Source: Parcubacteria group bacterium GW2011_GWA2_47_26
Lineage (GTDB): Bacteria > Patescibacteriota > Patescibacteriia > GWA2-47-26
Direction of reading: 5' to 3'
Assembly (NCBI GenBank): GCA_001001705.1
Contig: LCOG01000008.1
Span: 1-52,776 of the forward strand
DNA length: 52,776 nucleotides
Positions 13,551 to 32,095 of the stretch are shown one piece after another. Both the position numbers and the translations under genes were made by a program. Each line of letters opens with the position of its first letter. Position 1 is the stretch's first letter. The notes below the pieces were generated by a model. That model saw nothing but the letters and a program-made list of their open reading frames with translations, made no database searches and was not told the origin of the DNA.

Positions 13551-13554
13551 ACTC

Positions 13555-15905: not shown

Positions 15906-15979
15906 CGGGGTGTGGCCCAGTAGTCTAAGGCGCTGCGTTCGGGACGCAGAGATCGAGGGTGCGAATCCCTCCACCCCGA
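15906..15979 (+). tRNA. tRNA-Pro (anticodon CGG) with a non-canonical T-loop
   Basis: CGGGGTG..CTGCG-TTCGGGA-CGCAG..GAGGG-TGCGAAT-CCCTC-CACCCCG-A. The T-loop reads TGC where TTC is expected. It is the only RNA gene on the plus strand. Confidence 0.75.
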
Positions 15980-16010: not shown

Positions 16011-16847
16011 TTAAATAATCTTTGACGCGGTTTTACGGGGAATAAATTGTGCGAGAATGATCAAGATAATTCCACCCGCAAATATTACTATCGACATTAT
16101 AAGCGCAGAGTTAAAGAGATTGTTGACCAAAAACCCCACAGCGCGCATTAGGCTTTCAGTCTGATCCGGCGCCTGTTCCGCCATAATCAAAGAAACCACT
16201 TTAGGCAGGCTTAACACGATAAGTCCCGCCAGCACACCGCCAAGAATCAGCACACCGCCAAGAAAACGCAATATCGAACGCATTGAGGTCATGGTCAGCA
16301 ATAGTATAAAAATTCCCAATACAATCAACAAGCCTAGTATAAGAGTCCTTATAAATTGCGCAAGACGGTAATAATTGCGCACCTCCTCTGCGCGGCTCAA
16401 AAAATTTTGTCGGCTATCCGACGGCATAATTTCAAGAATTGATAACTCATCCGGCACGCCCGGAATTCCTGTGCCGATATTTTGTTTTAACTCTTTCAGA
16501 TTGACCTTTATCACCAACTCTGAAGCTGGCCGATCAGAATTAAACCAAGCTAGCGCTGAATCCAGAGCTGCTTTTAATTGCGACTCAAAAAACTCCGGCG
16601 TGATTATGCGCGTAATCAGACTGCTCGCATCTTGCTTGCCCATCAAGGGCAACCCCGATTTATTCGCTTCACCTAATAATTGCATTCCCAGTTGATCAAC
16701 AGCCATCCCATAGAGATCAATCTCCTTGGCTGTTTGCACAAATAACTTTGAATCTCGCAAATGAGAAAATATACTCTGCGCTAAAATTGCAACAGCTAAT
16801 ATTAGGGAGGCTATCAATACACAAATAACAGCAAAACCTTTTTGCAT
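16011..16847 (-). CDS. hypothetical membrane protein (N-terminal anchor, extracytoplasmic domain, C-terminal TM bundle)
   Basis: 278-aa ORF with TM helices at both ends and no family motif. Confidence 0.5.
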   Translation of the reverse strand: MQKGFAVICVLIASLILAVAILAQSIFSHLRDSKLFVQTAKEIDLYGMAVDQLGMQLLGEANKSGLPLMGKQDASSLITRIITPEFFESQLKAALDSALAWFNSDRPASELVIKVNLKELKQNIGTGIPGVPDELSILEIMPSDSRQNFLSRAEEVRNYYRLAQFIRTLILGLLIVLGIFILLLTMTSMRSILRFLGGVLILGGVLAGLIVLSLPKVVSLIMAEQAPDQTESLMRAVGFLVNNLFNSALIMSIVIFAGGIILIILAQFIPRKTASKII

Positions 16848-16915: not shown

Positions 16916-18076
16916 TTAGGGCAGCAGCTTCCTATACAATTGTTCAGTCTCATTAACGATTTTATCCCATTCAAAATATCGTTTGATAAAACCCAAGGCT
17001 AATTTGCCTTTCTCTTCAACTATTTCCGGGTGATTCAAAAGCGTCATCAGTTTTTCACAAAGATCTTCAGTGTTGCTTACCTCAAACGGAATGCCGGAAT
17101 GATCAATGGCCTCCAAATTTTCGGGGATATTAGAAATCAATACGCATTTTCCAAAACTCATGGCCTCAAGAATAGACAAAGACAGTCCTTCTGCTTCGGA
17201 AGGGTGAACATAAAGATAAGCATTGGCATAAAGCTCGTTTAGAACATCGCCAGTTTGGTAGCCAGTAAAAATAATGCGGTGATCTTCTTTAGCCAGCTCT
17301 TTCAAATATGTTTCGTAGTCATCGGTAAAACTCGGCGCGCCAACGATGGCCAGCTTCAACTCGCTCTTAAGCGTATCGGGAATATTTTTATAAGCTTCAA
17401 TCAAATAATGAATGCCCTTGTGTCGAATTAAACGCGCCACGGTTATAATATAGCGTCCTTTTTTAAGACCAAAACGCTGAAGATTTGTACTGCTCTCAAT
17501 TTTTTGCACTTTTACGCCATTGGGAATATATTTTATGGTTTTGCCATATTGTTTTTTGCAATATTTAACAATTGACCGTGAAACAGCAATTGTAGCATGC
17601 GGAATATGCACCGCTGTCCATTCTCCAAACTTTAGAATAAGGCGCGCAATCGCTCCCCATTTAGTATGAAAACGATCAATGGAATGAAAAGTTACGACAA
17701 TTTTAGCCCGTGTGAAAATACGCGGAAGCCAAGCCAGAAGTGCCGGACCTACGCCATGGAAGTGGATGATATCAAACCCTTTTGTGACTAGGTCACCGTG
17801 CGTTTGTGACCTAGTCACAAAAGGCAATACTACCTTAAGCGTCGCAAAAAATGTATAAGTGATCGTATCTAAATGTTTGGTTGGAATAGAAGGAACTCGT
17901 ACAATATGTATCCCTTGCCAAATATCATCTTTGGTCGCCACATAACGCGACCGCACATAAACCGTAACTTCGTGTCCGCGCTTAGCTAACCGCGTAGCTA
18001 GATCTTCAACATGACGCTCCACTCCCCCATCACGATAAAAGGGTACAGCCTTTTGACCAATAAAGGCAATTTTCAT
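16916..18076 (-). CDS. GT4-family (GT-B fold) glycosyltransferase
   Basis: N-terminal GGVERHVEDLATRLAKRGHEV and C-terminal EX7E region PSEAEGLSLSILEAMSFGKCVLISN. Confidence 0.85.
   Translation of the reverse strand: MKIAFIGQKAVPFYRDGGVERHVEDLATRLAKRGHEVTVYVRSRYVATKDDIWQGIHIVRVPSIPTKHLDTITYTFFATLKVVLPFVTRSQTHGDLVTKGFDIIHFHGVGPALLAWLPRIFTRAKIVVTFHSIDRFHTKWGAIARLILKFGEWTAVHIPHATIAVSRSIVKYCKKQYGKTIKYIPNGVKVQKIESSTNLQRFGLKKGRYIITVARLIRHKGIHYLIEAYKNIPDTLKSELKLAIVGAPSFTDDYETYLKELAKEDHRIIFTGYQTGDVLNELYANAYLYVHPSEAEGLSLSILEAMSFGKCVLISNIPENLEAIDHSGIPFEVSNTEDLCEKLMTLLNHPEIVEEKGKLALGFIKRYFEWDKIVNETEQLYRKLLP
17781..17821. repeat. CTAG-centred palindrome pair translated inside the GT4 gene
   Basis: TTTGTGACTAGGTCAC-cgtgcgttt-GTGACCTAGTCACAAA encodes FVTRSQTHGDLVTKG. 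Related GTGGCCTAGCCAC palindromes lie at 35962-35998. Confidence 0.7.
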
Positions 18077-18079
18077 AAT

Positions 18080-18919
18080 TTAAGGCCGAGAAAACTCAAA
18101 GTTTGAAAAATTCAGTATTGAGAAAACAGCTAAAATCCTAGTGATTATCCGTTCTATCATCAGACTCATCCTTGCAGAAATTACGCGTTTAAATAATTTA
18201 CTGACCGGATCAGTTTCGGTCTGATCGCTCAACGAGCCGCATCCCTGATCAGCGGGATAATCTACTCGCCCGTCGTTGTCATTATCATATCCGTCCGCGC
18301 AAGATGGAAGCACCTCCGGTCTAACTTCTGGCCCCAAAGGCATAACGGGCGCTTCAATAAGCGGCGGCTTTTCTCCTTCAATCGGGGGGAGTATGGCTTC
18401 TGGCGGAAGAGGCGGGGTCGGCCCGATAACAGGAGCGGGCTCTTCAATAGCATATAAAGCAGTCTTAGCCGAGGTAAATATATTTGTTCCTTCTCCGTCA
18501 TTGGCAAGTATTCGAACATTACGCACGTTCAGCGATACCGCACCGCTTCGCAATCCGCGGAAACGAATTTTGAATATCTCCCCCACCCCGGTAAACCCCG
18601 GAGCTGGTAGTCCGCCCGCAAATTCTACACGACCGGTTAATTTATTAAAGGCTGGCTCGCGCGCCCAAACCGTAATAAAAGAATTCGCGGAAGACAACGC
18701 AATGATCTCCACGCGTTCTTTAGGATAGACCATCACTCCTTCCAAAGCATTGATTGCTTGTTTTTGCGTATTAATTTTAACCGTTACTTCAAATTCATCA
18801 CCAACCTCTAGAGCACGAGTATTAGGATCAAAAGAAATAGTCGCCGCCGCTGATGCGCGCGCAAAAAATATCAGCGTAAAAACGCTTACTGCAACAATGC
18901 TTGCCGCGCGTCTAATCAT
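18080..18919 (-). CDS. secreted cohesin-like domain protein with Pro-rich linker and a CxDGxDNDxDG motif
   Basis: Signal-like MIRRAASIVAVSVFTLIFFARASA. Beta-rich domain ISFDPNTRALEVGDEFEVTVKINT...INALEGVMVYP...VEFAGGLP...IFKIRFRGLRSG. The start is set at 18919, which forms an ATGA overlap with the upstream stop. Confidence 0.55.
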   Translation of the reverse strand: MIRRAASIVAVSVFTLIFFARASAAATISFDPNTRALEVGDEFEVTVKINTQKQAINALEGVMVYPKERVEIIALSSANSFITVWAREPAFNKLTGRVEFAGGLPAPGFTGVGEIFKIRFRGLRSGAVSLNVRNVRILANDGEGTNIFTSAKTALYAIEEPAPVIGPTPPLPPEAILPPIEGEKPPLIEAPVMPLGPEVRPEVLPSCADGYDNDNDGRVDYPADQGCGSLSDQTETDPVSKLFKRVISARMSLMIERIITRILAVFSILNFSNFEFSRP

Positions 18920-19503
18920 AAAGACTTTGCTGGTGTCATGCGTTTTAGTCGCCATAATATAACGGCTAAAATAATCAATGCAAGCGCGGCAAATCCCGCA
19001 ATTCTCACTAGAACTAGAACGCCGGCCTTTGAAGGTTTGCCCTTTACTTCAAGACTAAAATCCGGCCGGATAATTTCTCCGCGCGTGCCCAAACCGTCAT
19101 TGAGATAAATTTCTGATTGCGGCGCCAGCGAAAGCGCATATGACCCGCGCGCGTTTATTTTAACCGCAACCTCAAGCAACACGGTACTACCCAACAATCC
19201 TCCGGGCACACCGCCCACTAATGATACGGTGCGCGCCGCTTCGTCGTATTTTGGCTCTTGAATCCAAATATTTACCGCAGAGTTTTCCTTGTTCAAACGA
19301 ACCAAGGAAAACTGCTCTGGCAAAGTAAAAGCTAGATTAAAAATATTTACGCGTTCTCCTTGGGTATCAACTCCGATTTTCAACGCGACCTCTTCGCCAA
19401 TCTGTACGGCATTTTTTTCCGCGCTAACTGTCAATACCGCCGCTTCGACATTAGACGGAAACATGAACAGCGCCACTATTATAAACAAAAATATTTTTAA
19501 CAC
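18916..19503 (-). CDS. cohesin-like domain protein with signal peptide and C-terminal TM anchor
   Basis: LTVSAEKNAVQIGEEVALKIGVDTQGERVNIFNLAFTLP...VSLVGGVPGG...LLEVAVKINARG, then the TM helix GVLVLVRIAGFAALALIILAVILW. Confidence 0.55.
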   Translation of the reverse strand: MLKIFLFIIVALFMFPSNVEAAVLTVSAEKNAVQIGEEVALKIGVDTQGERVNIFNLAFTLPEQFSLVRLNKENSAVNIWIQEPKYDEAARTVSLVGGVPGGLLGSTVLLEVAVKINARGSYALSLAPQSEIYLNDGLGTRGEIIRPDFSLEVKGKPSKAGVLVLVRIAGFAALALIILAVILWRLKRMTPAKSL

Positions 19504-19571
19504 AAAATTTTGGCTTAGCCTCGCCTAAAATCTAACAATTTCGCTGCGAAAATTATTAAGCAACAGGTCTA

Positions 19572-20711
19572 TTATCCTGTCCAATTGAATAGTAAAATAC
19601 TAAAATCTACAAGATCAACAATGTTATCTTGATTGATATCAACGCGAGGATTTGCTATGCCGTCTCCGGTCTGTTTCCAAAAAGCGAGCAAAATGCTAAT
19701 ATCCGCGAGATTAACCGCGTTATCAAAATTAATATCCGACCGCCTATATGTTGGCGCTCCCGGAATAGAAGAAGGGGTCGGGAGAATTGGGGAAATTGGA
19801 GGAGAAGGCGGAGTTGGAACAACCGGCGGAGTTGAAACCGCTGTAATAGTCAAAATCTGGGGCGCGCTCGTTTCGCTCTGATCTCCGTTTATTTGCGCTT
19901 TTGCGCGCAGAGTATAAGTTCCCGGATTTAACCTAGCAGTATCAATAGTCGTGGACCATGATCCCGTGCTTGCCGCTCTAGACACGCTCTCAATGACCGG
20001 GGGAATTTCTACTTTAACCGTACTGCCCGGAAAGGCAGTTCCACGCGCTGTAAATTTCGCGCCTTGAATCACGCTGGTTTCAGAAAGCTCAATTGTAGAG
20101 GGCAAAAAAATGTTTTCTATACCCGCTTGCTGAACTCCTAAAGGAATATTAAGCGTGTAAGTAATTAAAGGCGTACTGCGCCCCGCGCTGTCTTTGGCGA
20201 GCAAACCAAACGTGTAAGTATTACCGGAAGTTACCGCCTCAATAGAGCCGCTAAATGCGCCATCCGCTGCCGCACTGACTTGTTTGACAAGCGTCCCGTT
20301 CTTAAAAAATGAAATTGCCGCGGCAGGATAGGCGCGGCCGCTAAAAACCGTGTTTAGAGTAGTTGGCCCGGAAGTTACTGAACCGCCGGCCGAACCAGTC
20401 GTGCTAACCGTCGTACCGCCTACGGCCGGAGTTGGCGCAGCAACCGCGGCGGGAAACGTTAATGATCCGGCGTTAACCGTAAAACTTGAAGTAGTGGAAC
20501 GTCCAGTAGAAAGCTCGCCAACTACTCCATAAAGCCGATAAGAAGTTGAGCTCATCATAGCGCTTCCGGCGTCATTTACGACTGGATCAAGCACCTTAAA
20601 ATTTGGACTGGTAAATTCTGTCGCCTGAATACCAACAACAAAAAATCCTAAACTAAAAATCAGGAGTAGCACATAGAATATTCTGCTCATAAAAACTTTT
20701 CTTATTGTCAT
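19572..20711 (-). CDS. secreted Ig-like repeat protein with C-terminal dockerin-like module
   Basis: Signal or TM at the N-terminus and Thr/Ser/Gly-rich beta domains. The C-terminus carries duplicated Ca-loop segments DINFDNAVNLADISILL and DINQDNIVDLVDFSILL. Confidence 0.6.
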   Translation of the reverse strand: MTIRKVFMSRIFYVLLLIFSLGFFVVGIQATEFTSPNFKVLDPVVNDAGSAMMSSTSYRLYGVVGELSTGRSTTSSFTVNAGSLTFPAAVAAPTPAVGGTTVSTTGSAGGSVTSGPTTLNTVFSGRAYPAAAISFFKNGTLVKQVSAAADGAFSGSIEAVTSGNTYTFGLLAKDSAGRSTPLITYTLNIPLGVQQAGIENIFLPSTIELSETSVIQGAKFTARGTAFPGSTVKVEIPPVIESVSRAASTGSWSTTIDTARLNPGTYTLRAKAQINGDQSETSAPQILTITAVSTPPVVPTPPSPPISPILPTPSSIPGAPTYRRSDINFDNAVNLADISILLAFWKQTGDGIANPRVDINQDNIVDLVDFSILLFNWTG

Positions 20712-20744
20712 GACGAAACAGGCGTTTGTAATTCAAACTTCGTC

Positions 20745-23111
20745 TTATTCAGATTCGGCAGGCTCGCTACTGCTTTCAAGCGCGGCGATTTTGTCTTTCA
20801 CTTCTTGATTGTCAGCGGAAAGCTCAAGCACTTTCTTATACGCTTCAAGCGCGGCCGCAGTATCGCCTCGCTTCTCATAAATTGCCCCTAATGTAAAGTG
20901 CGCGTTCGCATAGCTTGAATTGCGGGCCAGAATTGCTTTTAAGATACTCTCGGACTTTTTTAAATCCTCGCCTTGCTTCCGGTTAAAATATAGCCGCGCA
21001 AGATTAAAGGCAACATCTAAATCGCCGCGCGCAAACTGTGCCGCTTGCTCGGCACGCTCAATAGCTTGATCAAAATTTTTGTCTCCCTCGGCCATCTGCG
21101 CTAGAATAAGGTACGCCGGCACATAATTGCGCTTAAGCGCAAGGGCTTTTTCAAAGTCAGCTTTAGCTTCCACGGTTTTTTTGTCATCGCGATAAATGAG
21201 GCCACGCGCAAGATAAAGCGCGGGGTTATTTGGTTCAAGCGCGAGCGCACTTACATACGCGTCAAGCGCCCATTGCGTTGCCTCCGGCGTAAGCGAGCGC
21301 ACTTGGGTATAAACTCCGCCTAACGTTTCCCAGGCCGCGGCAGAGCGAGGACTCAACTGTGTGGCGCGGCGCGCTTCTCCCACTGCGGCGCTGATTAACT
21401 GTCCCACTTTAGCTTTATTTGGCTCACTTGCGCCTGACTCAATAAGCGCGCTTTTAAACGCTCCTTGCGCCACTCCAATATGATATTCATAACGATTATT
21501 ATTCAAACGCAGAGCCCGCAAAAATAATGCCATGGCGCTATCGCTTCGATTTACGGCAAGCTCTTTAAGCCCCTTAGCATATAAATAATCCGCGGCGTAG
21601 AATCGTCCAAGATAAATGCCAAGCAGAGCAAGCGCCGCGATGGCAACCATTGCGCCAAATGAAGCGGCAAGCGACCATTGCGGCGAATTGCTATACGGCC
21701 GAACAAATTCGCGCGAAGCATGCGTGCCATAAAGTTCTCCAAGCAGAGCCAGAGAAGCTAGCAGTCCAAAAAAATATACCCACCCCACTGTCCCAAAAGG
21801 AATAAAAAACAAAAGCGCCAAAGTTAATAGCCACGCGCTTCCCACGGCTACAAAAAGCGAAGGAATAGAACGAGAACGCGGCTTCTCTTTTCCTCCTTTT
21901 GCTCCGGCCACGCTTTGAGCAACCAGACGAAATACGCCGAGTGCCAAGAATCCAGTAAAAACCCAAGCAATTATTCCAACTACTCCTACTCCCGCAGCCT
22001 GATGAACAATCTCGCTTGCGGGAGTATTGAACCGCACTGACCAGACAAAATTTTCATTAAACGAAACCGGACGATAAGCGGAAAAATCGTAGCCAAATGT
22101 ATTGGGGCCGCTTCCGATAAGCAGGCGGCCCACTCCTTCCTTAAGCATGCTCCACACAGTCTGCCAAGAAACGCTGTGCGTAAGGCTTACTTCAATGGGT
22201 GTTTCAACTGTAAGCAACGAGGGCGTGCCGAACACCGCAAACAATATAAAAATTATCCATAGCGCAAACCCAAAAGATATCAGGGTTAGACGAACCTTGG
22301 TAAAACGTATAAAACACGAAACCAAAAACAATCCGAGCGCCGCGGCGCTAACAATCATAAGACTGCGGTATCCTAGAGACACGATGGTTATAATAGAAAG
22401 CGCCACGGCGCCAGCCCAAAGACCTAGCCAGAGTGAGGAAAAACGCGCGTGATGACGTTCCGTCTCCGGTTCAATACTCGCCAAACGAGTCAACCCTATC
22501 AAAAGCGGAGGAAGCAATAGCATACTAAATCGGCTGTTAATCCCCTGAACCGTATTCCATGCTGGAAACACGCCGGGAAAATCAGCCAGACCAAACACTC
22601 GGCCCCAGTAATACAGCGTTGAAAGCCCGGCACCCGCGACTAAAAATCCCAAAAATCGCCGAACATGCCGCTCGCTTTCCATGTATTGCACCACAAGAAA
22701 AAAGAAAAGCAAATAAAACAGAATCGGCACGAATCCCCAACTTGTATTTCCGGAAAGCCCAAAAAAACTCGTAACGCGATCTTTGGAAAAAATGCTCGCC
22801 GCAAGAACCGCTATGCTTAAAATAATCAAAGGCATATCAAGAAATGTCCTTTTTACCGCGATTGTCCGCTCAACCATAACTTTGAATATCCAAGCCAGAG
22901 TACCAAGGCTTACCGTGGCGTAAAGAAGATACTGTTTATTGAACTCCAGCCATTCCGAGGTAAAAGGCAGGAAAAAAACAGGTATTAAAAAAATAAAAAC
23001 ATAAAGCGTGTTGCGGGTGATCACGGAAAGTATGCGACTGGTGGTCATAGAAATAGAGCTATTTAAGCAATTTTGAGCCTCATCACTAGCTTTATAATAC
23101 CATAAATACAA
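20745..23111 (-). CDS. polytopic membrane protein (O-antigen ligase/Wzy-like architecture) fused to C-terminal TPR repeats
   Basis: More than 10 TM helices followed by about 250 aa of TPR-like repeats (ALRLNNNRYEYHIGVAQG..., AKADFEKALALKRNYVPAYLILAQM..., ALEAYKKVLELSADN). The start is ambiguous; an alternative Met lies at 23048. Confidence 0.5.
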   Translation of the reverse strand: MYLWYYKASDEAQNCLNSSISMTTSRILSVITRNTLYVFIFLIPVFFLPFTSEWLEFNKQYLLYATVSLGTLAWIFKVMVERTIAVKRTFLDMPLIILSIAVLAASIFSKDRVTSFFGLSGNTSWGFVPILFYLLFFFLVVQYMESERHVRRFLGFLVAGAGLSTLYYWGRVFGLADFPGVFPAWNTVQGINSRFSMLLLPPLLIGLTRLASIEPETERHHARFSSLWLGLWAGAVALSIITIVSLGYRSLMIVSAAALGLFLVSCFIRFTKVRLTLISFGFALWIIFILFAVFGTPSLLTVETPIEVSLTHSVSWQTVWSMLKEGVGRLLIGSGPNTFGYDFSAYRPVSFNENFVWSVRFNTPASEIVHQAAGVGVVGIIAWVFTGFLALGVFRLVAQSVAGAKGGKEKPRSRSIPSLFVAVGSAWLLTLALLFFIPFGTVGWVYFFGLLASLALLGELYGTHASREFVRPYSNSPQWSLAASFGAMVAIAALALLGIYLGRFYAADYLYAKGLKELAVNRSDSAMALFLRALRLNNNRYEYHIGVAQGAFKSALIESGASEPNKAKVGQLISAAVGEARRATQLSPRSAAAWETLGGVYTQVRSLTPEATQWALDAYVSALALEPNNPALYLARGLIYRDDKKTVEAKADFEKALALKRNYVPAYLILAQMAEGDKNFDQAIERAEQAAQFARGDLDVAFNLARLYFNRKQGEDLKKSESILKAILARNSSYANAHFTLGAIYEKRGDTAAALEAYKKVLELSADNQEVKDKIAALESSSEPAESE

Positions 23112-23164: not shown

Positions 23165-24337
23165 CTACACCTGAAACCCGTACCAAGCCTTCGCCTTTGA
23201 TGCGAAGTGAAATGAGATAAGGCTTGCGTCCTCTATACTCAACTCCTGCGCAAGGCGGTCAAGCGTATTTTGATCGCGTTCGGTTCCCTTTAGTTTTACT
23301 TCATACGCTTCTTTTTTCTTATCCCGCGTAACCAGAAAATCAATTTCCACTCCGGTCTTTTTCCGATAATAATTAAGCGCGACCCCTTGTGCGCGCAATT
23401 GGTGAAAAATCGCATTTTCAAATACTCGGCCAAATTCAACTTTGGCAATCTGCATAGCCAGTCCGCTGTCGCAGGCGTAAAATTTCGGCGCGCCGCGAAT
23501 TTCCACATCGCGACTGCGCGAATAAGGCCGTACCAAACTAATAAAATAAGTTCCTTCAAGAAATGCCAGATATTCTTTAAGTGTAAGGCGCGAAATTCCT
23601 AATTCCGCAGACAATTTGGAAATATCCAAACGACTGCCGATGCGCTCAAGCAGCAAAAGCATGAGATCGCGCACAATTTTATTATTGCGGAAATCACCCA
23701 GTTGAAGCACTTCCTTATTAAAATACGAGGAGAAAATATCGTTAAGCGCGTCGCGCTTTTCCGGCGCGGAAGATTTTGCCGCTACGCCGGGAAAACCTCC
23801 GAATTCCACATATTCTTTATATTGTGTTTGAAAATGCGTATAAAGCGACTCGCGCGTGATATAATCCGGCGGCACTTTAGCTGATTCGCCTTTGAGTGTA
23901 AGAAATTCTTCAAAATCAAGCGGATAGAGTTCATATAAATACTTGCGCCCAGCAAGCGATTCAGAAAATACGTTTTTAAGGTAAAAACTGGCTGAACCAG
24001 TAAGAAAGAATTTAATCGGATAATGGTCCGAAAGATATTTAACTATGGAGGGCATTGTCCGGACAAATTGTATCTCATCTAAAAATACATAGGAGCGCAT
24101 TTTTAGATTAAGACCAAGGGTTGAAAACTCATAGGCAATTGCCTCATAATCAATTTCTTCAAAATACTTTTGATGAAGCGGGTTTTCAAGATCAAGGAAT
24201 AACTTGTTATCAGAAGTAATACGCTCAAAAATCTGGCGCAAAAGTGTAGTTTTCTCGACGCGACGCATACCAGTTACCACGATTGCTTCGGGCGATTCTA
24301 GCCGCTCCAAATATAGGATGAAGTAGTTTACGCTCAA
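23165..24337 (-). CDS. AAA-type ATPase (AAA_14 plus DUF4143 architecture) with a degenerate Walker A
   Basis: VVTGMRRVEKTTLLRQ, then FLDEIQ (Walker B-like), then a C-terminal region typical of DUF4143. Walker A reads GMRRVEKT, with Glu where the conserved Gly is expected. The apparent start is TTG. Confidence 0.6.
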   Translation of the reverse strand: MSVNYFILYLERLESPEAIVVTGMRRVEKTTLLRQIFERITSDNKLFLDLENPLHQKYFEEIDYEAIAYEFSTLGLNLKMRSYVFLDEIQFVRTMPSIVKYLSDHYPIKFFLTGSASFYLKNVFSESLAGRKYLYELYPLDFEEFLTLKGESAKVPPDYITRESLYTHFQTQYKEYVEFGGFPGVAAKSSAPEKRDALNDIFSSYFNKEVLQLGDFRNNKIVRDLMLLLLERIGSRLDISKLSAELGISRLTLKEYLAFLEGTYFISLVRPYSRSRDVEIRGAPKFYACDSGLAMQIAKVEFGRVFENAIFHQLRAQGVALNYYRKKTGVEIDFLVTRDKKKEAYEVKLKGTERDQNTLDRLAQELSIEDASLISFHFASKAKAWYGFQV

Positions 24338-24481: not shown

Positions 24482-27400
24482 CTATGATTCAGCCGGGGCC
24501 GGGGGTGACTCAACTGCCGGTTCAGGAGCTGGCTCTGGCGCGGGAGTAGGCGCGGATTCTTGAACTGGCGCGGGAGTAGGTTCTTCTGCTATGGGAGCTG
24601 GAGTGGAGGCCGATTCAGAAGTTGTCGCAGTCTCAATCGGTTCTGGCGCTGGCACTGCGGGAGAACTTTCCACCGGCGCAGAGGCTAGCGCAGGTTCAGG
24701 CGCAGGCGCAGGAGTAGGAGTAGGCTCCGGCGTAGAAACAGGCGCAGAGGCGGGTTCAACTGCTGAAACTGGGGCTTCTTCCGGTTCAACCTCAACTACG
24801 GCGGATGCAGGCTCTTCCGCTACACTTACGTCATCTTGGGGCGTAGCCCGGCCTGCCACAACCGAAGTTGTGGCACCGGGCGTAGCCGAAGGATCCCGCG
24901 ATTCTTGAGTGGCACGGGATTCTTCACGCTGTTCAGAATGACTGTCTTGGGATGTGGAAGATGCCGGAGCAACAGAAACACTGCTTGCGCTAGAGGCCGG
25001 CGCCTCACAAAGCGCTTTTACAAACTCGCCATTGCGAATACTTACACAATACTTCTCGCCCGTTGCCTCATCATACATAATCAACCGCTTCTTTACTTCC
25101 AAATCTTGAAGCATCATATTTCCGCTTGAATCAATGCTCCAAGCACCCGAGGAACTGGCAATGGCCAGCACGCCGGTAAGCGCGCGGCCATTCATATTGC
25201 CGTCAAAAGCGCTCGGTGCCGCAGCAATAGTCCCATCCGACGCTTGCGAGACCGTCAACTGATCCGGACCGTTCCAGAAGGTATTTATTACCTGTACCAT
25301 AACTTGCCCGCGCTCTTCATCAAATTGCGCAAGAGCCATACCAATCACGCGCCCAGAACGCGTAGCTTTCATGGCATGCCCTGGAGTTGAAGAGGTGGTG
25401 AGAAAATCCCCAACTTGGATGGATCCATTCTCGCGCGTCACCTTGACGGGTACGCGCCCGACAAGCGCGACGGGCAGTGGATTATCCTTATCCTCAATAT
25501 TATAGCCCGCAGAAGTGAAGTCACTGTAATTGTCAGAAACAATACCTACCACCGGTTCTTGATATGGTGTACTGGAACGCACCGTCTCTACAATGCGATG
25601 TCCTTGGGTAGTAACGACTTCACGAGTCCCGGGAACCACAATATCTCCGTACGAGACGCCTTGCGCTACAGGAAATTGCTCGGCATAGTCAGCCGTAGGA
25701 GCGCCGTTACAATCCTTAATTGCTTCGGTAGCCGCGCCATTAGTTTCATGACACAACGCATACGGCCCGTTAGCCCCTGTCGCCGTTGCAAAAGTGGCAA
25801 TCACCGTACCCGCCGTTTCCACAATAAACGCGCCCGCATTCACATTAATCGCATCATCCCAGCCGTCGCCGATTATCAATCCCGTCTCCGTCCCAGAACC
25901 GGCAGAAGTCAAAGCCGCAATGTTGACGCCATTAAGCGTGCCGGCGGCTGGACCAGAAGTGGTGGGTGAGACAATGTTTATCCCGGACATGGTACCACCG
26001 GTCACAATGGCGCCGGAGGCGGGAATAAGCACGCGCAGACCATCAGCCGTGACGGTGTCGCCGGTATTTTGGGTAATCACGGGCATGGTCACATTAAGAC
26101 CGCGCCAGGAAAGCACCGCGGCATTGGCGCCGTCAGTAACGCTTAACGCGCCGGCGGCAGAGATATTATATCCAGTGTAAGTGGTGGTGACAGCAGTATC
26201 AGCGGCGGTGAGTGCGTTCATGATGATGTTCGTACCCGTGATATCACGATCAACAGTGCCAGTGAGATTAGTATCAAAATCAAATTGAAGCCCGATTATA
26301 TCGCCAGCACCCTGTGTAGTAGCGCTCGCAAAATCCGCGTTGATGAGCGTGCCGAAAGTCCATTCGGTTTCTAGAGCAAAATCAAGGAAAGTACCGGTGG
26401 CTTGCGGAGTGATTGAAACGTCACCAAGTTCAGTAACCTTGAATACTAAAACCCCCGCGCCCGACAATTCATAATTATTGGCAATTATTTGGAAATCAGC
26501 TGTAGTTGTATCATTATTAGAGTCAATCGCTAATTTAAGATTAGCAGAACTTGCTCCTATAACTCCACCTGCTCCATTTAAGCCCCACTGATCTTGACTT
26601 GATACTTGCAAACCATATGTACTTAAAGTATTTCCACCAACTACAAAGCCGTCGGCTGTTATCTTACTTGATGCCGCGCCATTCACGGCAAAACCTATCT
26701 GGTTGGCCGCTACGGAATAGATGCCTGTGTCAGGGTCGCTTATAAACGCCAAACTAGGCAAAGCCGCGGTACCCGCGCCAAACCCAACATTCCCAGCAAA
26801 ACCAGCCGCCCACGATCTTGTGAGCGTCATGTTTGCCCCTTGCACTGGGTCATCTACATATAACGTATAAGCATCTGATATTGTCAGCGCGCCATCCGCA
26901 TTTCCCGCATAGGTGGGGCCTTGGATGAATACCTCTCTCTGCGTCGCCAGCGGCCCCGCTCCCGCCGCCCAGGTTTTCGTAGCGGAGAAATTAAAGTTTG
27001 CGCCGATATTTTCGGTGGCCGCGGTAAGATTTGTATGAGCCGCGCCTGTTAAAGTTAAGAAGGTTGCCAAGCCAGAAGCTATAGCTCCTTCTGTTAAAAT
27101 AAAATTCCGAGAACTTGCCCCAATTTGTAACGCCGTGCCACCACTGTGAATAATTCTAAATTCATCAGGGGAATTATCTGCAACGATAGACCATGTTCTC
27201 GAACTATTCGTTAATTCAATAGTGAAATCAGAAGCTCCTGTATAGGTTTGAGTGCTTGCCGTGAGAACACTGCGCGCGACATCATTCACACTGAACTCAA
27301 AAGTCGCTCCTGTCGGTACATTGAAATGGAGCTGGTTTGTTGCGTCTGCGTCGCGGCCTATTGAATAAGAAGCCGCTACCATTGCCACGCCGGTATCAAA

Positions 27401-30400
27401 TCTAACATGGTCATTCATCTCTAAAATACCTGTTGCCATGTCAAAAAGAGTCACACCGGCAAAGGCAAGGGTATCTCCCGTCTGGGTAATCGTGGCATCG
27501 CTGCTATCCCAGTTGATGACTGCGCCTTCGGCCAGAAACAAATCGCTGAACGCCGTTCCTGACACGCCAAGCGCGAGGCCGTCATCGGCATTGGGTTGAA
27601 GATTCGTCGCATTGAGAACAAGCTCATTAGTCCCGCCGATGCCCACCTCCAAAGACGTGGTAGCATTGATATCTGTGTCCCACCCAGAACCGACTGAAAT
27701 AGCGGTTTCCGTTCCTGAGCCGGCGGAAGTAAGGTTGGCGATCGCAATGCCTGTAAGAGTGCCCGCGGCAGGCCCTGAAGTTGTTGGCGCAATTATATTA
27801 ATTCCGGTTGATGTTCCGTCGGTTGTAATCGCGGATGAAGCGGGGAACACGATACGAATTGCATCCGCGGTTACCGTGCCCGTGGTTTGAGTGATGGCTG
27901 GAATTGTAATTGTCTCACCTCGCCAATTGATAGTTCCCGCGGCGGTGCTTTGAATTAAACCGGCGCTACTTGTGATTGTAATGCCACTCAATACCTCGGT
28001 GCCGGTTCCAGTGCGCGTAGCGCCATCAGTAGTAAGCGCGATATTGATCATATTCCGACCATTCGCGCCGGTTAAATTAGTGGCCAAATCAATATTTAGG
28101 CCCGTGAGCGCGCCAGCACCCTGCGTATTAGCTGACTCATACGAAACGTCAATAAGCGTGCCTGTGTCATTCATGCTTTCAAAATCCATCATATTTGCCG
28201 TAGTGATACTTGTGCCCGTAATAACAATAGCGGCGCCATCTCCACTGGGAACAAACGACGTCCGTCCATCGCTAAACATTGTAAACACATCCGAGTCTGT
28301 AGCATCCGCGTTTTGACTCGCACGTATGAACCCGGCCGAGGCATCTTCTGAAATCATATGCAGGAAATAGCCATTTGTAGAATTAGTGTCGTTGTATTCA
28401 AGACGAAGCAAAGCTGAATCAAATTGTGACCATGTTCCAGTTTTTTGAATTACCATGGCCGCTTGTCCAGCGGTGTCAAAGGTATTGGCATCACGAATAC
28501 CAATCCCAAAAGCTGATGGTGTGACAGCCTCTGTAAGACCGGCGCCGAACGCTCCGCCGACATGCAAGCCCTCATCCCACCCGGTTCCAATTGAAATAGC
28601 TGTTTCTGTGCCCGATCCAGCGGAGGTCAGGTTTCCGATTTGCATGCCATAAAGCGTGCCGGCCGCCGGACCAGAGGTTGTGGGTGAGACAATGTTTATC
28701 CCGGACATGGTACCACCGGTCACAATGGCGCCGGAGGCGGGAATGGTTACTTTCAGACCATCAGAGGTAATGGTGCCGGCGGTTCCGGTAATGGCAGCCA
28801 GTGTAATGTTGGTTCCAATTGAACTTACTGTACTACCGGCAAAATTTGCAGTTGCCACAGGAGCAGTAATATTCAGACCGCGCCAGTTGATAGTTCCAGC
28901 GGCGGTGTCTTGGGTAAGCGCGCCGGAGGCGGAATTATTGTAGGCAATGTAGGTTGTGGTATTGGCCGCGGATTGAGTGAGCGCGTTCATAACCACATTC
29001 GTGCCAGTGATATCGCGGTCAGTGGCGCCGGTAAGGTTGGTGTCAAAGTCAAACTGCAAACCAATGATGTCTCCGGCTCCTTGGGTGGTTGCGCCCCCAA
29101 AATTGGCGTTTATGAGCGTGCCTAAAGTCCACTCGGTTGCGAGTTCAAAATCAAGAAAGGTTCCCGTAGTATTGGGATCAATCGCAAGTGCACCGGAAGT
29201 TTCGGCAATAAAGGTGCCAGAATTAATGTTGATCGCGTCGTCCCAACCGGAGGCAATAGCTAAGCCTGTGGCCGTAATGGTGCCGGTGGTTTCGGATTGA
29301 GTCAGGGTGCCGATGTTTAAGGCATTTAAGGTAAGGGTGCCGGCCGCGCTAATAGTACCGGTAAAGGCATCCACGTCAATCACATTGAAGGTATCCGAGG
29401 CATTGACTGAAATTGAGGGGGTGATATCAATGACATTGCCCGAGGCATTAGAGCCGGTGAAAGTGAGCTGGAGCGCGTCAACGCCGTCAGTCGCTGAAGT
29501 GTCCCCGGAACCAATAGTCACGATGTCGGCGGTAGGGGTGGCATCCCCGTCAAAGTTAATGGTTTGTCCATCAATGATTTCCACATTAAAGTCACCCCCG
29601 GCAACGGCCAGAGAGTTCGCGGCATGGGTGAGGGTGACATCGCCATTATCAAAGTTGATGACTCCACCCGAGGCCAGGAAAAGATCTGACCACATTAAGG
29701 AGGTGGTGCCTAACGCATTAGAGTCGGTGGTGGCGGGTGAGAAAGCCGAGCTGGTCAGGGTTAGTTCATTGGTACCACCAATGCCGATCTCAAGTGAGGT
29801 GGTGGCATTGATATCCGTATCATATCCTGTACCAATAGAAATACCAGTGGTAGCAGAGTTGGTGGTGGTGGTGTTGGGTAAAGATAACCCAATAAACGTG
29901 TCAGCATCAGTGGATTCTGTCCAGTTGATTACCAAGCCATTGACGGCGTCTACTGCCGCATCGGCCGTAGAGATGGCGGAAAGATCCAGCACATCAATAG
30001 CGTTGACTGAAGTACCGGAAAACGCTACGACATCCCCAGCATTGGCACCAGTTTTAGTCACGTTGGCCGTATCTCCAGCATCGAGCGTCACATTAAAATC
30101 TCCGCCTGAAACATCAAGATCGCCGTTTGAGATAAGGATGTCGCCATCGGTAAGGACTAAAGAATCTACTCCGTCTCCACCGCCGTTTAAGGTGACTTGG
30201 CTGTCCGCGTCTGTATCTATAATCACGTCACCTGTGCCTCCAGGAGTAATAGTCAGAGATTCGTTTGTGCCTGTTGTAATAGAACCGTTGCCAAAGGTTG
30301 TTGTGGCTCCGGCGATGAATGAACCGTCCGTATAGACATTGCCTTCAATGCCTGCAATGCCAGCCACAAAAAGATCGTCTCCATCAAGTGTGAATCCAGC

Positions 30401-32095
30401 ATTGTCAAGAGTTTCTACCGCCGCGCCGACTGTCAGATTGTTGGTAAGGTTCAAGTCTCCGCTGTCTGTGAATGTCGCAAATGCAACGCCTCCATCCTGA
30501 ATGATGAAATCTGTTGTTGTTGAGAGATTGAAAACAAGGTCTCCGGCGGCGTCCACTGTAATGGTTTGACCGTTTGTATAGGCCTCGTCAAGAGTGACGC
30601 CGCCGTCAAGCGAGGTGAATTCGGCTGTTGAAATAAGTGTACCGGCAATGTCAAAAAGATTGGTGAATCCTCCGCCCGCGTCAATCACTTTAATGGCCGC
30701 GCCAATCGCGTCATCTAAATCTGAATTATCAATGACAAGAGAAGCATCAAGGCCTTCGGTTGAAGCAAGGTTATCAATGTAGATGCCATATTGGTCTGTT
30801 GTGCCAGAAGTCGTGTCAGAAGCTGTTGAGTTTATGGTCATCGAGTTTTCTGCCGTGGCGTTGGTAAGGGTTCGAGTTAGAGTAACGGTCTCTCCCGCTG
30901 TTCCAGTAATAGATAAGGCGGCGTCAAGAGAAGAAGCGTCAATAAATTTGTCGAAATCCAGCGTGTCGTCGGCAATATCCGCGTTCTCAATATTGGTAAT
31001 GGAATTCCCCGAACCGTTTGCGTCAAAAGAAACTCCTGTAATCGCGCCTGTTGTTGAGATGTCCCAATCCGATGAATCAATAGCCACTGTGCTCAAGTTG
31101 TTGCCAATAGAAATAGCTGTTGCTCCAGTGAGCGTCAGACCGCCAGCGCCTGTAATCAGGCCGTCGGCTGTGAGCGCTCCGATACCGGTCATGATCCCTG
31201 TGGCATCAATATCCCAATCCGAAGAGTTAACGGCAACCGTGTCGCCCCCATCGCCGAGCAACACCGCGCCTCCGGGTGTGAGAGTAAACGCTCCAGTTGT
31301 GGTGAACGTAGTTGATGTTCCATCAAATGCGATATCTGTATCAGCGATTGCGACATTGCCGTTTGCATCAAGAAGACCGCTTGCTGTCAAAGTTCCTGTT
31401 GCAGTAAGCGCATTGTTCACGGTGCTTGTTCCAGTGGCCGCACCCAGCGATAGCGTGGTAGCCGCTCCGCCGATATTCAAAGCAGTCGCTGTGGTATTTG
31501 CAAGATTAAATGTAGTCGCTGTTGTTGTAAAATCTCCGCCGTTTACCGCAAGATCAGCGCTGGTGGTAATGTTACCCGTAACCGTAATCTCGCCCGAAGC
31601 GCCGAGACGCAAAACATTATTAGCCGAGGTGCCCGCGTGCACACCATCCACAGTGTCGGCATTAATAGCAAATCCTGATGACGCGATTCTCTGCCGCGGC
31701 GCTAACGTTTCTGAAGTTGCAAAAATATCGCTTGTTGAAATTTCAACGCGCAAATATATGCTTGAATCCGAATCAAAATCAAGCGTTAACGCGTCAAACC
31801 CCGCGCTAGTGTCGCCAATAAGCGCGTTAAATACGCCATTCTGCACAGTAAGCCCGACAATCGCCGGATTTCCAGCGGGCCAAAGCTGGGTACCTCCAGT
31901 CAAATCGGAATAGATTGAAAATCGGAAATAAAAGGTCTGGCCGGAAGAACCTCCCAATAAATTACCACTCGCATCAGTAAGCCGTCCTTGATAGCTAATT
32001 ATACTTGGCGGCGCAGCCAAAGAAACCCTGAAAATTCCAAAAGTTAGCATCAGGGCTATTACCGAAAATGCACTTACAAACACAATCCTGCGCAT
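24482..32095 (-). CDS. giant (2537 aa) repetitive surface protein, fibre or adhesin-like
   Basis: N-terminal anchor or signal, then PPSIISYQGRLTD...LWP...VQNGVFN. Three modules of about 200 aa each end in SPTTSGPAAGTL..LTSAGSGTETAISIGTGWD. Tail-fibre-like strings are present (LEIGIGGTNEL...LGTTSLMWSDLFLA). A beta-rich C-terminal domain (ADYAEQF...PVALVGRVPVKV...GDFLTTSSTPGHAMKA) is followed by a P/A/E/S-rich tail. Confidence 0.85.
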   Translation of the reverse strand: MRRIVFVSAFSVIALMLTFGIFRVSLAAPPSIISYQGRLTDASGNLLGGSSGQTFYFRFSIYSDLTGGTQLWPAGNPAIVGLTVQNGVFNALIGDTSAGFDALTLDFDSDSSIYLRVEISTSDIFATSETLAPRQRIASSGFAINADTVDGVHAGTSANNVLRLGASGEITVTGNITTSADLAVNGGDFTTTATTFNLANTTATALNIGGAATTLSLGAATGTSTVNNALTATGTLTASGLLDANGNVAIADTDIAFDGTSTTFTTTGAFTLTPGGAVLLGDGGDTVAVNSSDWDIDATGIMTGIGALTADGLITGAGGLTLTGATAISIGNNLSTVAIDSSDWDISTTGAITGVSFDANGSGNSITNIENADIADDTLDFDKFIDASSLDAALSITGTAGETVTLTRTLTNATAENSMTINSTASDTTSGTTDQYGIYIDNLASTEGLDASLVIDNSDLDDAIGAAIKVIDAGGGFTNLFDIAGTLISTAEFTSLDGGVTLDEAYTNGQTITVDAAGDLVFNLSTTTDFIIQDGGVAFATFTDSGDLNLTNNLTVGAAVETLDNAGFTLDGDDLFVAGIAGIEGNVYTDGSFIAGATTTFGNGSITTGTNESLTITPGGTGDVIIDTDADSQVTLNGGGDGVDSLVLTDGDILISNGDLDVSGGDFNVTLDAGDTANVTKTGANAGDVVAFSGTSVNAIDVLDLSAISTADAAVDAVNGLVINWTESTDADTFIGLSLPNTTTTNSATTGISIGTGYDTDINATTSLEIGIGGTNELTLTSSAFSPATTDSNALGTTSLMWSDLFLASGGVINFDNGDVTLTHAANSLAVAGGDFNVEIIDGQTINFDGDATPTADIVTIGSGDTSATDGVDALQLTFTGSNASGNVIDITPSISVNASDTFNVIDVDAFTGTISAAGTLTLNALNIGTLTQSETTGTITATGLAIASGWDDAININSGTFIAETSGALAIDPNTTGTFLDFELATEWTLGTLINANFGGATTQGAGDIIGLQFDFDTNLTGATDRDITGTNVVMNALTQSAANTTTYIAYNNSASGALTQDTAAGTINWRGLNITAPVATANFAGSTVSSIGTNITLAAITGTAGTITSDGLKVTIPASGAIVTGGTMSGINIVSPTTSGPAAGTLYGMQIGNLTSAGSGTETAISIGTGWDEGLHVGGAFGAGLTEAVTPSAFGIGIRDANTFDTAGQAAMVIQKTGTWSQFDSALLRLEYNDTNSTNGYFLHMISEDASAGFIRASQNADATDSDVFTMFSDGRTSFVPSGDGAAIVITGTSITTANMMDFESMNDTGTLIDVSYESANTQGAGALTGLNIDLATNLTGANGRNMINIALTTDGATRTGTGTEVLSGITITSSAGLIQSTAAGTINWRGETITIPAITQTTGTVTADAIRIVFPASSAITTDGTSTGINIIAPTTSGPAAGTLTGIAIANLTSAGSGTETAISVGSGWDTDINATTSLEVGIGGTNELVLNATNLQPNADDGLALGVSGTAFSDLFLAEGAVINWDSSDATITQTGDTLAFAGVTLFDMATGILEMNDHVRFDTGVAMVAASYSIGRDADATNQLHFNVPTGATFEFSVNDVARSVLTASTQTYTGASDFTIELTNSSRTWSIVADNSPDEFRIIHSGGTALQIGASSRNFILTEGAIASGLATFLTLTGAAHTNLTAATENIGANFNFSATKTWAAGAGPLATQREVFIQGPTYAGNADGALTISDAYTLYVDDPVQGANMTLTRSWAAGFAGNVGFGAGTAALPSLAFISDPDTGIYSVAANQIGFAVNGAASSKITADGFVVGGNTLSTYGLQVSSQDQWGLNGAGGVIGASSANLKLAIDSNNDTTTADFQIIANNYELSGAGVLVFKVTELGDVSITPQATGTFLDFALETEWTFGTLINADFASATTQGAGDIIGLQFDFDTNLTGTVDRDITGTNIIMNALTAADTAVTTTYTGYNISAAGALSVTDGANAAVLSWRGLNVTMPVITQNTGDTVTADGLRVLIPASGAIVTGGTMSGINIVSPTTSGPAAGTLNGVNIAALTSAGSGTETGLIIGDGWDDAINVNAGAFIVETAGTVIATFATATGANGPYALCHETNGAATEAIKDCNGAPTADYAEQFPVAQGVSYGDIVVPGTREVVTTQGHRIVETVRSSTPYQEPVVGIVSDNYSDFTSAGYNIEDKDNPLPVALVGRVPVKVTRENGSIQVGDFLTTSSTPGHAMKATRSGRVIGMALAQFDEERGQVMVQVINTFWNGPDQLTVSQASDGTIAAAPSAFDGNMNGRALTGVLAIASSSGAWSIDSSGNMMLQDLEVKKRLIMYDEATGEKYCVSIRNGEFVKALCEAPASSASSVSVAPASSTSQDSHSEQREESRATQESRDPSATPGATTSVVAGRATPQDDVSVAEEPASAVVEVEPEEAPVSAVEPASAPVSTPEPTPTPAPAPEPALASAPVESSPAVPAPEPIETATTSESASTPAPIAEEPTPAPVQESAPTPAPEPAPEPAVESPPAPAES
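24830..24942 (-). repeat. composite palindromic element translated in frame near the 3' end of the giant gene
   Basis: On the minus strand GTCATTCTGAACAGCGTGAAGAATCCC...CCCAAGATGAC, with an inner hairpin CCCGGTGCCACAAC-TTCG-GTTGTGGCAGGCCGGG (24847-24880). It encodes HSEQREESRATQESRDPSATPGATTSVVAGRATPQDD. Confidence 0.7.

Follow-up and report, generated by a model that had tools for sequence, protein, structure and literature searches.

A conserved gene trio in a Parcubacteria group bacterium encodes a putative cohesin–dockerin tether for a secreted stalk protein

We analysed a 52,776-nucleotide stretch of DNA (hereafter the window) from Parcubacteria group bacterium GW2011_GWA2_47_26 (contig LCOG01000008.1, assembly GCA_001001705.1), a member of the Patescibacteria or candidate phyla radiation (CPR), and focused on three adjacent genes that encode a dockerin-bearing stalk protein, DocP, and two cohesin-like proteins, CohA and CohB. 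We consider, with a probability of roughly 60%, that this trio is a Ca2+-dependent cohesin–dockerin device that tethers the secreted stalk protein to the cytoplasmic membrane and is conserved as a module in the CPR. The trio may possibly sit at the base of a pilus. An earlier interpretation made from the nucleotide letters without database searches (hereafter the sequence-only reading) had proposed a self-contained set of anchor, scaffold and cargo for a non-cellulolytic surface assembly, embedded in a glycosylation locus. The features of the trio are as follows, where COH1 and COH2 denote the two groups of cohesin genes described below.

19572..20711, minus strand: DocP, the dockerin-bearing stalk protein; open reading frame (ORF) of 379 aa if translated from its first ATG; public gene callers begin at the ATG at 20672 (366 aa)
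20412..20621, minus strand: N-terminal segment of DocP (partial match to NCBIfam PamT; low confidence in AlphaFold2 (AF2))
19842..20360, minus strand: two tandem immunoglobulin (Ig)-like domains of DocP (AF2, sub-threshold Pfam, Foldseek)
19575..19754, minus strand: predicted dockerin module of DocP, residues ~320-379 (Pfam, phmmer, AF2, family alignment)
18916..19503, minus strand: CohA (COH1 group), 195 aa (AF2, Foldseek, family profile)
~19030-19440, minus strand: predicted cohesin-fold domain of CohA, residues ~22-158
~18940-19029, minus strand: predicted C-terminal transmembrane (TM) helix of CohA, residues 159-188 (AF2)
18080..18955, minus strand: CohB (COH2 group), 291 aa; 279 aa with the ATG at 18919 as start
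18916..18919, minus strand: ATGA overlap of the cohA stop and the cohB start (read from the sequence)

DocP begins with a signal peptide and an N-terminal segment modelled with low confidence, continues with two Ig-like domains and a Pro-rich linker, and ends in a dockerin. The chain ends in DINFDNAVNLADISILL and DINQDNIVDLVDFSILL, exactly the tail in which the sequence-only reading had recognised duplicated dockerin-type Ca2+ loops, and its final residues are WTG. Pfam Dockerin_1 (PF00404) matches residues 325–373 with a borderline score, equal to the cut-off of 22.9 bits (E = 1e-4), and phmmer aligns the tail with the solved dockerins 2y3n_B (E = 6e-4) and 8ajy_B. Two F-hand Ca2+ loops, DINFDNAVNLAD and DINQDNIVDLVD, are each followed by a helix of the form (D/F)SILLxxW. 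Both are canonical 12-residue loops, D-I-N-F-D-N-A-V-N-L-A-D and D-I-N-Q-D-N-I-V-D-L-V-D, with Asp or Asn at positions 1, 3, 5 and 12. The AF2 model of the 366-aa form places one helix after each loop (residues 322–330 and 354–362) with a predicted local distance difference test score (pLDDT) of ~90. The tail also fits a 27-member dockerin family alignment, and PF00404 is present in most of the 29 DocP homologues, among which the nearest named relative is a Candidatus Uhrbacteria protein with 46% identity. Judged by its sequence and model, the DocP tail is a dockerin, albeit a divergent rather than a textbook member.

In the remainder of the AF2 model, the signal peptide is helical, residues 15–96 have pLDDT values below 50, and residues 105–277 (366-aa form) form two beta domains with values above 90. 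A Big_13 match in DocP (22.8 bits) lies below its cut-off; in Foldseek comparisons, the Ig-like pair resembles the tandem Ig domains of the adhesins Bap, SiiE and intimin, and it is the best-conserved core across the DocP homologues. Hydropathy reveals no TM segment besides the signal peptide. Pfam, AF2 and Foldseek identified Ig-like domains and the dockerin but no glycoside hydrolase in DocP, in line with the non-cellulolytic character proposed for the set.

In the AF2 model of CohA (pLDDT 94.6), a signal peptide precedes a beta domain, and a helix at the C-terminus (residues 159–188) bears out the membrane anchor proposed earlier. All 18 of the top 18 PDB matches of this model in Foldseek are cohesins (E = 1.7e-7 to 4.5e-6), led by 2xdh, a non-cellulosomal cohesin of Archaeoglobus fulgidus (E = 1.7e-7, target-normalised TM-score 0.76), and followed by 5aoz, 5m2o, 6kgc and 4dh2. 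Since neither CohA nor CohB matches Pfam Cohesin (PF00963) directly, even at E ≤ 1, where CohA matches no Pfam family at all, the fold assignment needed a family profile in addition to the structure model; direct NCBIfam and PDB sequence searches with the two proteins found no cohesin either. A profile of 60 family sequences retrieved the Ruminococcus flavefaciens ScaB cohesins 5aoz (E = 4.1e-5), 5m2o (6.6e-5) and 5m2s (2e-3) as its sole significant PDB matches. The Pfam search that the sequence-only reading had suggested was therefore positive at the cut-off for the dockerin and negative for the two cohesins themselves, but 20 of 50 family representatives match PF00963 (e.g. P0006 at 1.4e-6), and many homologues carry a precomputed PF00963 annotation. 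By predicted fold and by profile, the beta domain of CohA is a divergent cohesin. An exhaustive profile search places it in a family of 8,444 clusters at 50% identity (E ≤ 1e-3).

CohB is assigned to the cohesin family by its paralogy to CohA (BLASTP, 29% identity, E = 7e-13) and by its match to the local hidden Markov model (HMM) of the family (E = 3e-50), so the two consecutive cohesin-like genes seen in the sequence-only reading belong to one divergent cohesin family. In its 279-aa public form (P0085), CohB scores 171 for COH2 versus 104 for COH1. The protein consists of a signal peptide, the cohesin-like domain, a Pro-rich linker (PTPPLPPEAILPPIEGEKPPLIEAPVMPLGPEVRPEVLP), an acidic Cys-flanked motif, CADGYDNDNDGRVDYPADQGCG, and a short, weakly hydrophobic C-terminus. 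Its 291 or 279 residues compare with 490–750 aa in the COH2 orthologues; homology stops near residue 210, and the tail after CADGYDNDNDGRVDYPADQGCG has no homology to them. From this comparison, CohB looks like a truncated or remodelled COH2. The Pro-rich linker noted earlier is present, and the description of CohB as secreted is uncertain, given a borderline hydrophobic stretch at the C-terminus (Kyte-Doolittle 1.67) and the clear TM segments of 29 of 30 orthologues. As a separate observation on the C-terminal part (18080-18330, minus strand), CADGYDNDNDGRVDYPADQGCG gives sub-threshold matches to an acidic double-disulfide repeat (NCBIfam acid_disulf_rpt, E = 1.2e-4) and to a MopE metal-binding motif. 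The overlap of the two cohesin genes is present as described: on the minus strand, 18919–18916 reads ATGA, in which TGA ends CohA and ATG is a start of CohB, the one used by gene callers in six public contig copies. The region is found in identical form in assemblies of Rifle groundwater and in the metagenome-assembled genome (MAG) GCA_001001845.1.

The arrangement of the trio recurs widely. With cohesin-only patterns built from six close orthologues, 29 genome loci (numbered with an L below) were fetched from Paceibacteria, Nomura-, Kaiser-, Lipton- and Doudnabacteria and MAGs labelled Saccharibacteria, and these were scanned with local HMMs for the cohesin-like domain and for the 27-member C-terminal dockerin alignment. 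In all 25 of the cohesin-seeded loci that have upstream sequence, an ORF ending in a dockerin lies upstream on the same strand, adjacent in 21 and with one pilin gene between in 4; the trio thus co-occurs in related genomes, a point that the sequence-only reading had proposed to check. The cohesin genes downstream of this ORF form a tandem pair, or sometimes three, and this pattern is repeated in loci found through the dockerin protein or through other homologues. Because the order dockerin protein (DOC), COH1, COH2 recurs in ~30 independent Patescibacteria loci, the arrangement is far beyond chance, and DOC, COH1 and COH2 form a conserved three-gene unit of the Patescibacteria (CPR). COH1 at the first position and COH2 at the second are separate orthologous groups (23/26 and 26/26 in a nearest-neighbour test). 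A TM segment follows the cohesin domain in 32 of 36 COH1 and 29 of 30 COH2 proteins, and all three module proteins carry a signal peptide. Since the two groups are distinct and both are nearly always anchored, CohB is better regarded as a second receptor than as a dockerin-borne scaffold. The scaffold role given to it in the sequence-only reading is not upheld, since CohB has no dockerin and therefore cannot plug into CohA.

The dockerin of the module belongs to a distinct subtype, in which DxNxDGxVNLxDFSILLxxW occurs twice and the chain ends in WTG, and its two repeats average 58% identity across the family. The presumed cargo ranges from 186 aa to >5000 aa and always ends in this subtype. 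At L013 (1-9993, GCA_964368945.1), a >5045-aa protein of fibronectin type III (FnIII) repeats with the same dockerin subtype at its end lies directly upstream of COH1/COH2, and giant proteins can therefore be docked cargo. Proteins of ~250 aa in which a single cohesin-like domain is joined to a C-terminal dockerin (COH+DOC) are encoded in eight module loci (L021, L025, L028, L034, L037, L038, L039 and L042, e.g. L042 11460-12212) and alone in two more (L009 10001-10714 and L011 2956-3648); they sit just downstream of the module or stand alone. One further protein, P0084 (2276 aa), contains nine cohesin copies.

Many of the related loci carry genes of Pam pili. These CPR pili consist of the donor-strand pilins PamA/B/E, the tip protein PamT, the membrane-anchored chaperones PamC/D and the terminator and anchor PamR, which is built from an N-terminal strand, two FnIII domains and a C-terminal TM helix and which ends and anchors the pilus (Troman et al., bioRxiv 10.64898/2026.03.03.709456). 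According to the same preprint, PamT has no donor strand, pam operons have a 'tail fibre-like' neighbour, and the PamA pilin of M. amalyticus bears an O-linked sugar; cohesin and dockerin are unmentioned in it. In our iterative searches, Pam pilin genes and/or a chaperone-like TM-anchored protein adjoin the module in 17 of 37 loci, usually in the order chaperone-like, DOC, (pilin), COH1, COH2, (COH+DOC), which does not support the self-contained set proposed earlier. Two genes just upstream of the module at L008 pass the cut-off of CPR_Pam_pilin_C (NCBIfam NF058581; 125.6 and 56.1 bits versus 55). In the DOC proteins of L043, L040 and L017, a Pam pilin N-terminal domain (E = 7e-18) is combined with a dockerin in place of the acceptor C-terminal domain, and DocP aligns through its Ig–Ig–dockerin portion with DOC proteins from Pam-linked loci. 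The chaperone-like family (310–365 aa, signal peptide and C-terminal TM segment) is encoded directly upstream of the dockerin gene in 15 loci (e.g. L008 8307-9239, L046 4974-6068 and L019 5594-6664), shows weak similarity to WxL-interacting proteins (PF06030, E ~0.01; WxLIP_PGBD), and probably corresponds to PamC/D-type chaperones.

The N-terminal segment of DocP (TEFTSPNFKVLDP...SSTSYRL...SSFTVNAGSL) weakly resembles the N-terminal part of PamT. DocP scores 26–27.5 bits against the PamT profile (NCBIfam NF058579, cut-off 240), covering only positions 8/14–80 of 241; three of the 29 DocP homologues match this profile (best E = 1.5e-9), and the motif is confined to the dockerin proteins of L007, L015, L036 and L044. 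Since PamT is said to have no donor strand, the part that it shares with DocP is perhaps not one either. No Pam pilin or chaperone-like gene was found in the 52.8-kb window, either by jackhmmer from the L008 seeds or by NCBIfam on 27 window proteins, and none was found at L007 and L015, the loci of the closest relatives.

We also considered two homologies between the cohesin-like proteins and Pam components. CohA and CohB are unlikely to be PamC/PamD chaperones, described in the preprint with two beta domains and a TM helix, as the structural neighbours of CohA are cohesins, not PapD/FimC; this identity is also opposed by the separate chaperone-like TM-anchored family in the same loci, to which profile comparison shows no relation. 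Homology of the cohesin domain to the nine-stranded N-terminal domain of Pam pilins was rejected for want of a signal in profile comparison, which showed no relation of the cohesin domains to the N-terminal or C-terminal pilin domains or to the chaperone-like family.

Since the module recurs across the group, often beside pilus genes, it probably tethers surface structures to the cell. In the mechanism that we propose, DocP would be exported by Sec as a variable N-terminal 'head', a rigid stalk of two Ig domains, a Pro-rich linker and an internally duplicated Ca2+-binding dockerin. CohA, of the COH1 type, would also be exported and be kept in the cytoplasmic membrane by its C-terminal helix, and CohB, of the COH2 type, would provide a second cohesin receptor, which is membrane-anchored in nearly all relatives and shortened here. 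The dockerin would plug into one or both of these cohesins, and the stalk protein, with whatever its N-terminus contacts, would thereby be held on the surface of a cell without an outer membrane. We infer the binding of the dockerin to the module cohesins, its stoichiometry and Ca2+ dependence and the role of the N-terminal head. The constant pairing of two distinct membrane-anchored cohesins with a symmetric dockerin suggests either that each cohesin occupies its own dockerin face or that the two serve different dockerins (those of DocP and of the COH+DOC proteins).

The genes around the trio seem to be less conserved than the trio itself. All genes between 16.9 and 32.1 kb lie on the minus strand and are arranged in the transcription order giant protein, AAA_14/DUF4143, polytopic/tetratricopeptide repeat (TPR) protein, DocP, CohA, CohB, family 4 glycosyltransferase (GT4).

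24482..32095, minus strand: giant repetitive surface protein of 2537 aa, signal peptide present (ORF)
23165..24337, minus strand: AAA_14/DUF4143 ATPase gene (Pfam)
20745..23111, minus strand: polytopic membrane protein of 788 aa (767 aa as called publicly), with TPR repeats at its C-terminus
16916..18076, minus strand: GT4 glycosyltransferase (Pfam), 4 nt downstream of cohB

The intergenic gaps from the AAA_14/DUF4143 gene to GT4 are all ≤68 nt. A promoter-like TTGACA-17-TATACT (11/12) at 24377-24349 and a strong terminator-like hairpin at 24447-24428, both on the minus strand, separate the giant gene from the rest, and the AAA_14/DUF4143 gene may head a possible transcription unit that ends at GT4. 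Since such promoter- and terminator-like sites are no more numerous than in shuffled controls, this boundary is only suggestive.

GT4 was recognised correctly in the sequence-only reading, with strong matches to Glycos_transf_1 (E = 3.4e-29) and Glyco_transf_4 (E = 1.4e-25) in Pfam. No homologue of it lies beside the module in any related locus compared, and GT4 therefore falls outside the conserved module. Orthologues of the polytopic/TPR protein directly precede the module in no loci but L007, L015 and L008, those of the closest relatives, and with GT4 unmatched elsewhere, the view that the trio is embedded in a glycosylation locus finds no support in the comparison of loci. The TPR repeats of this protein are strongly supported by Pfam. 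Its proposed likeness to Wzy depends on one remote profile link: Wzy_C (PF04932) matches neither the protein nor its three orthologues at E ≤ 10, and NCBIfam gives no match, while hhalign relates it to a 716-aa Wzy_C+TPR protein of L015 with 96% probability (E = 1.2e-9), a value that TM composition can inflate, and the Wzy_C match of that L015 protein is itself below the cut-off (28.9 versus 31.7 bits). By these comparisons, the Wzy likeness is weak, and an O-antigen-ligase-like identity is possible but unproven. The giant protein noted earlier is present, and the AAA_14/DUF4143 gene, which had gone unmentioned, lies between it and the polytopic/TPR gene. This gene is not a conserved member of the module; since it is absent from the equivalent position in the orthologous locus L007, an insertion is suggested.

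The giant protein is secreted and Thr/Gly/Ala-rich, with long internal repeats and a Pro/Ala/Glu-rich tail, and matches no Pfam or NCBIfam family. Its C-terminal ~430 aa are kept upstream of the module in L007 (phmmer to a fragment, E = 1e-82) and weakly in L008 (E = 5e-7). Searches of PDB sequences with this C-terminus and with a Pam pilin returned nothing useful. The protein may correspond to the 'tail fibre-like' neighbour of pam operons. Beyond it, at 32155-33204, lies an unrelated 349-aa protein that gives the only glycoside hydrolase-like match in the window.

On the other side of the trio, several features were observed in their own right. After GT4, a 278-aa membrane protein is encoded at 16011-16847 (minus strand) with a prepilin-like N-terminus (MQKGFAVICVLIASLILAVA) and a weak PilV match, and tRNA-Pro on the opposite strand (15906-15979, plus) closes the gene string. 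At 13266-14589 (minus strand), the gene of a PilT-like T2SSE ATPase (344 aa), called as two pieces in the public contig copy L002, overlaps at its 3' end a GIY-YIG nuclease gene (111 aa) by ~47 nt. A 331-aa protein at 11973-12968 (minus strand) has an N-terminal TM segment and C-terminal Asp-rich repeats (DFDGDHLPD...DPANPDSDDDEHLDGDE) that resemble thrombospondin-type-3 Ca2+-binding repeats, with a weak match to CglD.

A more specific version of the tether assigns the module to the base of a Pam-type, donor-strand-exchange pilus. DocP would then be a 'split PamR', in which the N-terminal strand or segment engages the last pilin, two Ig/FnIII-like domains follow, and the dockerin replaces the TM helix of PamR, which the cohesin proteins supply in trans. 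In broader form, the module would fix to the cytoplasmic membrane either Pam-type pili or different long fibres, for which the giant proteins nearby are candidates, with the internally symmetric dockerin clamped simultaneously by two different membrane cohesins and the dockerin protein acting as a chain-terminating adaptor, so that PamR is divided into a soluble adaptor and cohesin–TM sockets. The interleaving of the module with Pam genes in 17 of 37 loci, the two L008 neighbours above the pilin cut-off, the pilin-like N-terminal domains in the DOC proteins of L043, L040 and L017, the alignment of DocP with Pam-linked DOC proteins, its weak N-terminal match to PamT and the strand–2 FnIII–TM layout of PamR (10.64898/2026.03.03.709456) all favour this arrangement, which is attractive for the family. 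On the other hand, the window, L007 and L015 have no detected Pam pilin or chaperone-like gene, and the PamT match is far under its cut-off, covers only the signal peptide and ~60 residues, and concerns a protein reportedly devoid of a donor strand (10.64898/2026.03.03.709456). We therefore hold pilus or fibre anchoring as a tentative proposal, less probable than the general tether, and unproven for this window.

The trio could also work without any cohesin–dockerin binding, if the cohesin-like domains are carbohydrate- or host-binding modules or spacers, the dockerin is a Ca2+-stabilised EF-hand pair, and the synteny reflects co-regulated surface proteins. Several observations weigh in this direction and against the tether. 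The pairing rests on prediction, both cohesin-like proteins of the window miss Pfam Cohesin, the dockerin score sits exactly at the Pfam threshold, and dockerin-like EF-hand pairs can occur without cohesin partners. Integrin thigh/calf-type beta-sandwiches and a pilus domain also appear among the Foldseek matches (E ~1e-5), and an essential dockerin-domain protein of Southlakia has been read as glycan-targeting (Wang et al. 2023, PMC10633639). CohB, which lacks the long C-terminal part of its orthologues, may be impaired. Two further lines that would favour pairing give weak support only. Gene models of 600–900 aa (P0065-P0090) have a COH1-type and then a COH2-type domain in one chain and may be true hairpin fusions, but they keep an internal TM and signal-peptide-like segment between the domains and could therefore be merged gene calls. 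In an exploratory mirror-tree analysis, partial correlations link the dockerin distances to those of COH1 (0.50) and of COH2 (0.31), a signal that is confounded by shared phylogeny. However, the strict co-occurrence and fixed gene order in ~30 loci are hard to reconcile with an absence of binding. Single-chain COH+DOC proteins exist, both dockerin repeats are highly conserved, as a binding surface would be, and the top structural matches are specifically cohesins, some of them solved in complex with dockerins. We consider non-binding improbable. Still less probable is a hierarchy, close to the sequence-only reading, in which CohA is the membrane anchor, CohB a secreted bridging scaffold and DocP the cargo, in a glycosylation locus that modifies them. 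The borderline hydrophobic C-terminus and long Pro-rich linker of CohB, the flanking GT4 and possibly Wzy-related polytopic protein, and the O-linked sugar on PamA of M. amalyticus (10.64898/2026.03.03.709456) would agree with such a hierarchy. However, CohB has neither a dockerin nor another known module for attachment to CohA, 29 of 30 COH2 orthologues are anchored in the membrane, GT4 accompanies the module nowhere else, and the Wzy assignment is sub-threshold.

As a tether, the module shares its parts with the cellulosomes of Clostridia and Ruminococcus (OlpA/OlpC, ScaE). The likenesses comprise the cohesin beta-sandwich, for which Foldseek matches include R. flavefaciens ScaB Coh3, C. acetobutylicum CohA2 and C. 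thermocellum OlpC/OlpA; a docking protein with a C-terminal duplicated F-hand dockerin, of type I/III in cellulosomes; a cell-bound cohesin that serves as an anchor, as CohA would; and, among relatives of the trio, COH+DOC proteins like adaptor scaffoldins and one nine-cohesin protein. In contrast to cellulosomes, the locus has no glycoside hydrolases, carbohydrate-binding modules or multi-cohesin scaffoldin, and CohA and CohB have one cohesin each. The module is anchored by a C-terminal TM helix, not by S-layer homology domains or sortase, its cargo is an Ig-domain stalk, its dockerin is of the subtype with DFSILLxxW twice and WTG at the chain end, two conserved single-cohesin receptors accompany each dockerin protein, and the bacterium that carries it is an ultra-small, non-cellulolytic member of the CPR.

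Cohesin–dockerin pairs outside cellulosomes are already known from the A. fulgidus and C. perfringens structures, and non-cellulosomal cohesin and dockerin modules are reportedly widespread. The A. fulgidus cohesin 2xdh is the best match to CohA, and the C. perfringens toxin-complex cohesins 2jh2, 2vo8 and 2w1n are within its top 15; as in those organisms, cohesin and dockerin would be used here outside plant cell-wall degradation. There, the modules join enzymes or toxins or occur as orphans, whereas the present system is a fixed three-gene unit throughout the radiation, often by pilus genes. CPR bacteria, or Patescibacteria, make up a large share of bacterial diversity and live attached to host cells. 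Little is understood of the way in which they assemble surface structures and retain them with no outer membrane, and if the binding is real, this three-gene unit offers a concrete, testable attachment mechanism.

Within the same radiation, the secreted protein SEML1_0315 of the cultivated patescibacterium Southlakia epibionticum, which scored as essential or growth-defective in transposon sequencing and which Wang et al. (2023, PMC10633639) suggest may bind glycans, resembles DocP in combining Ig/FnIII-like domains with a dockerin domain. It differs in its 927 aa and in standing alone, next to an alpha/beta hydrolase gene and a tRNA gene, and was rejected as a trio member because its neighbourhood has no cohesin genes; the annotation tables of that study (PMC10633639) contain no cohesin. 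In the full-text literature, with subscription journals outside its coverage, we found no published description of a CPR DOC/COH1/COH2 operon unit or of its association with pilus genes.

The Pam pilus, known from the same bacterial radiation, is a counterpart in gene context, as related loci carry genes for the pilin C-terminal domain and chaperone-like proteins beside the module. DocP, with an N-terminal segment, two Ig/FnIII-like domains and an anchoring element, parallels PamR, and the giant fibrous protein near the module parallels the 'tail fibre-like' neighbour of pam operons. Unlike PamR, DocP carries a dockerin in the position of the TM helix; profile comparison relates the cohesin domains to neither the pilin nor the chaperone-like families, and no Pam pilin or chaperone is detectable in the window. 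The module is wired into the Pam operon at 17 of 37 loci and is absent from the operon's own description (10.64898/2026.03.03.709456). If pilus or fibre anchoring were true, this would be the first pilus or fibre held by a cohesin–dockerin joint and the first obligate pair of two cohesin receptors for one dockerin. If the binding is real, the module would add a new compact type of dockerin/cohesin pair, possibly useful in protein engineering, and in the case of pilus or fibre anchoring, the cohesin–dockerin principle would extend from the scaffolding of enzymes to the anchoring of appendages.

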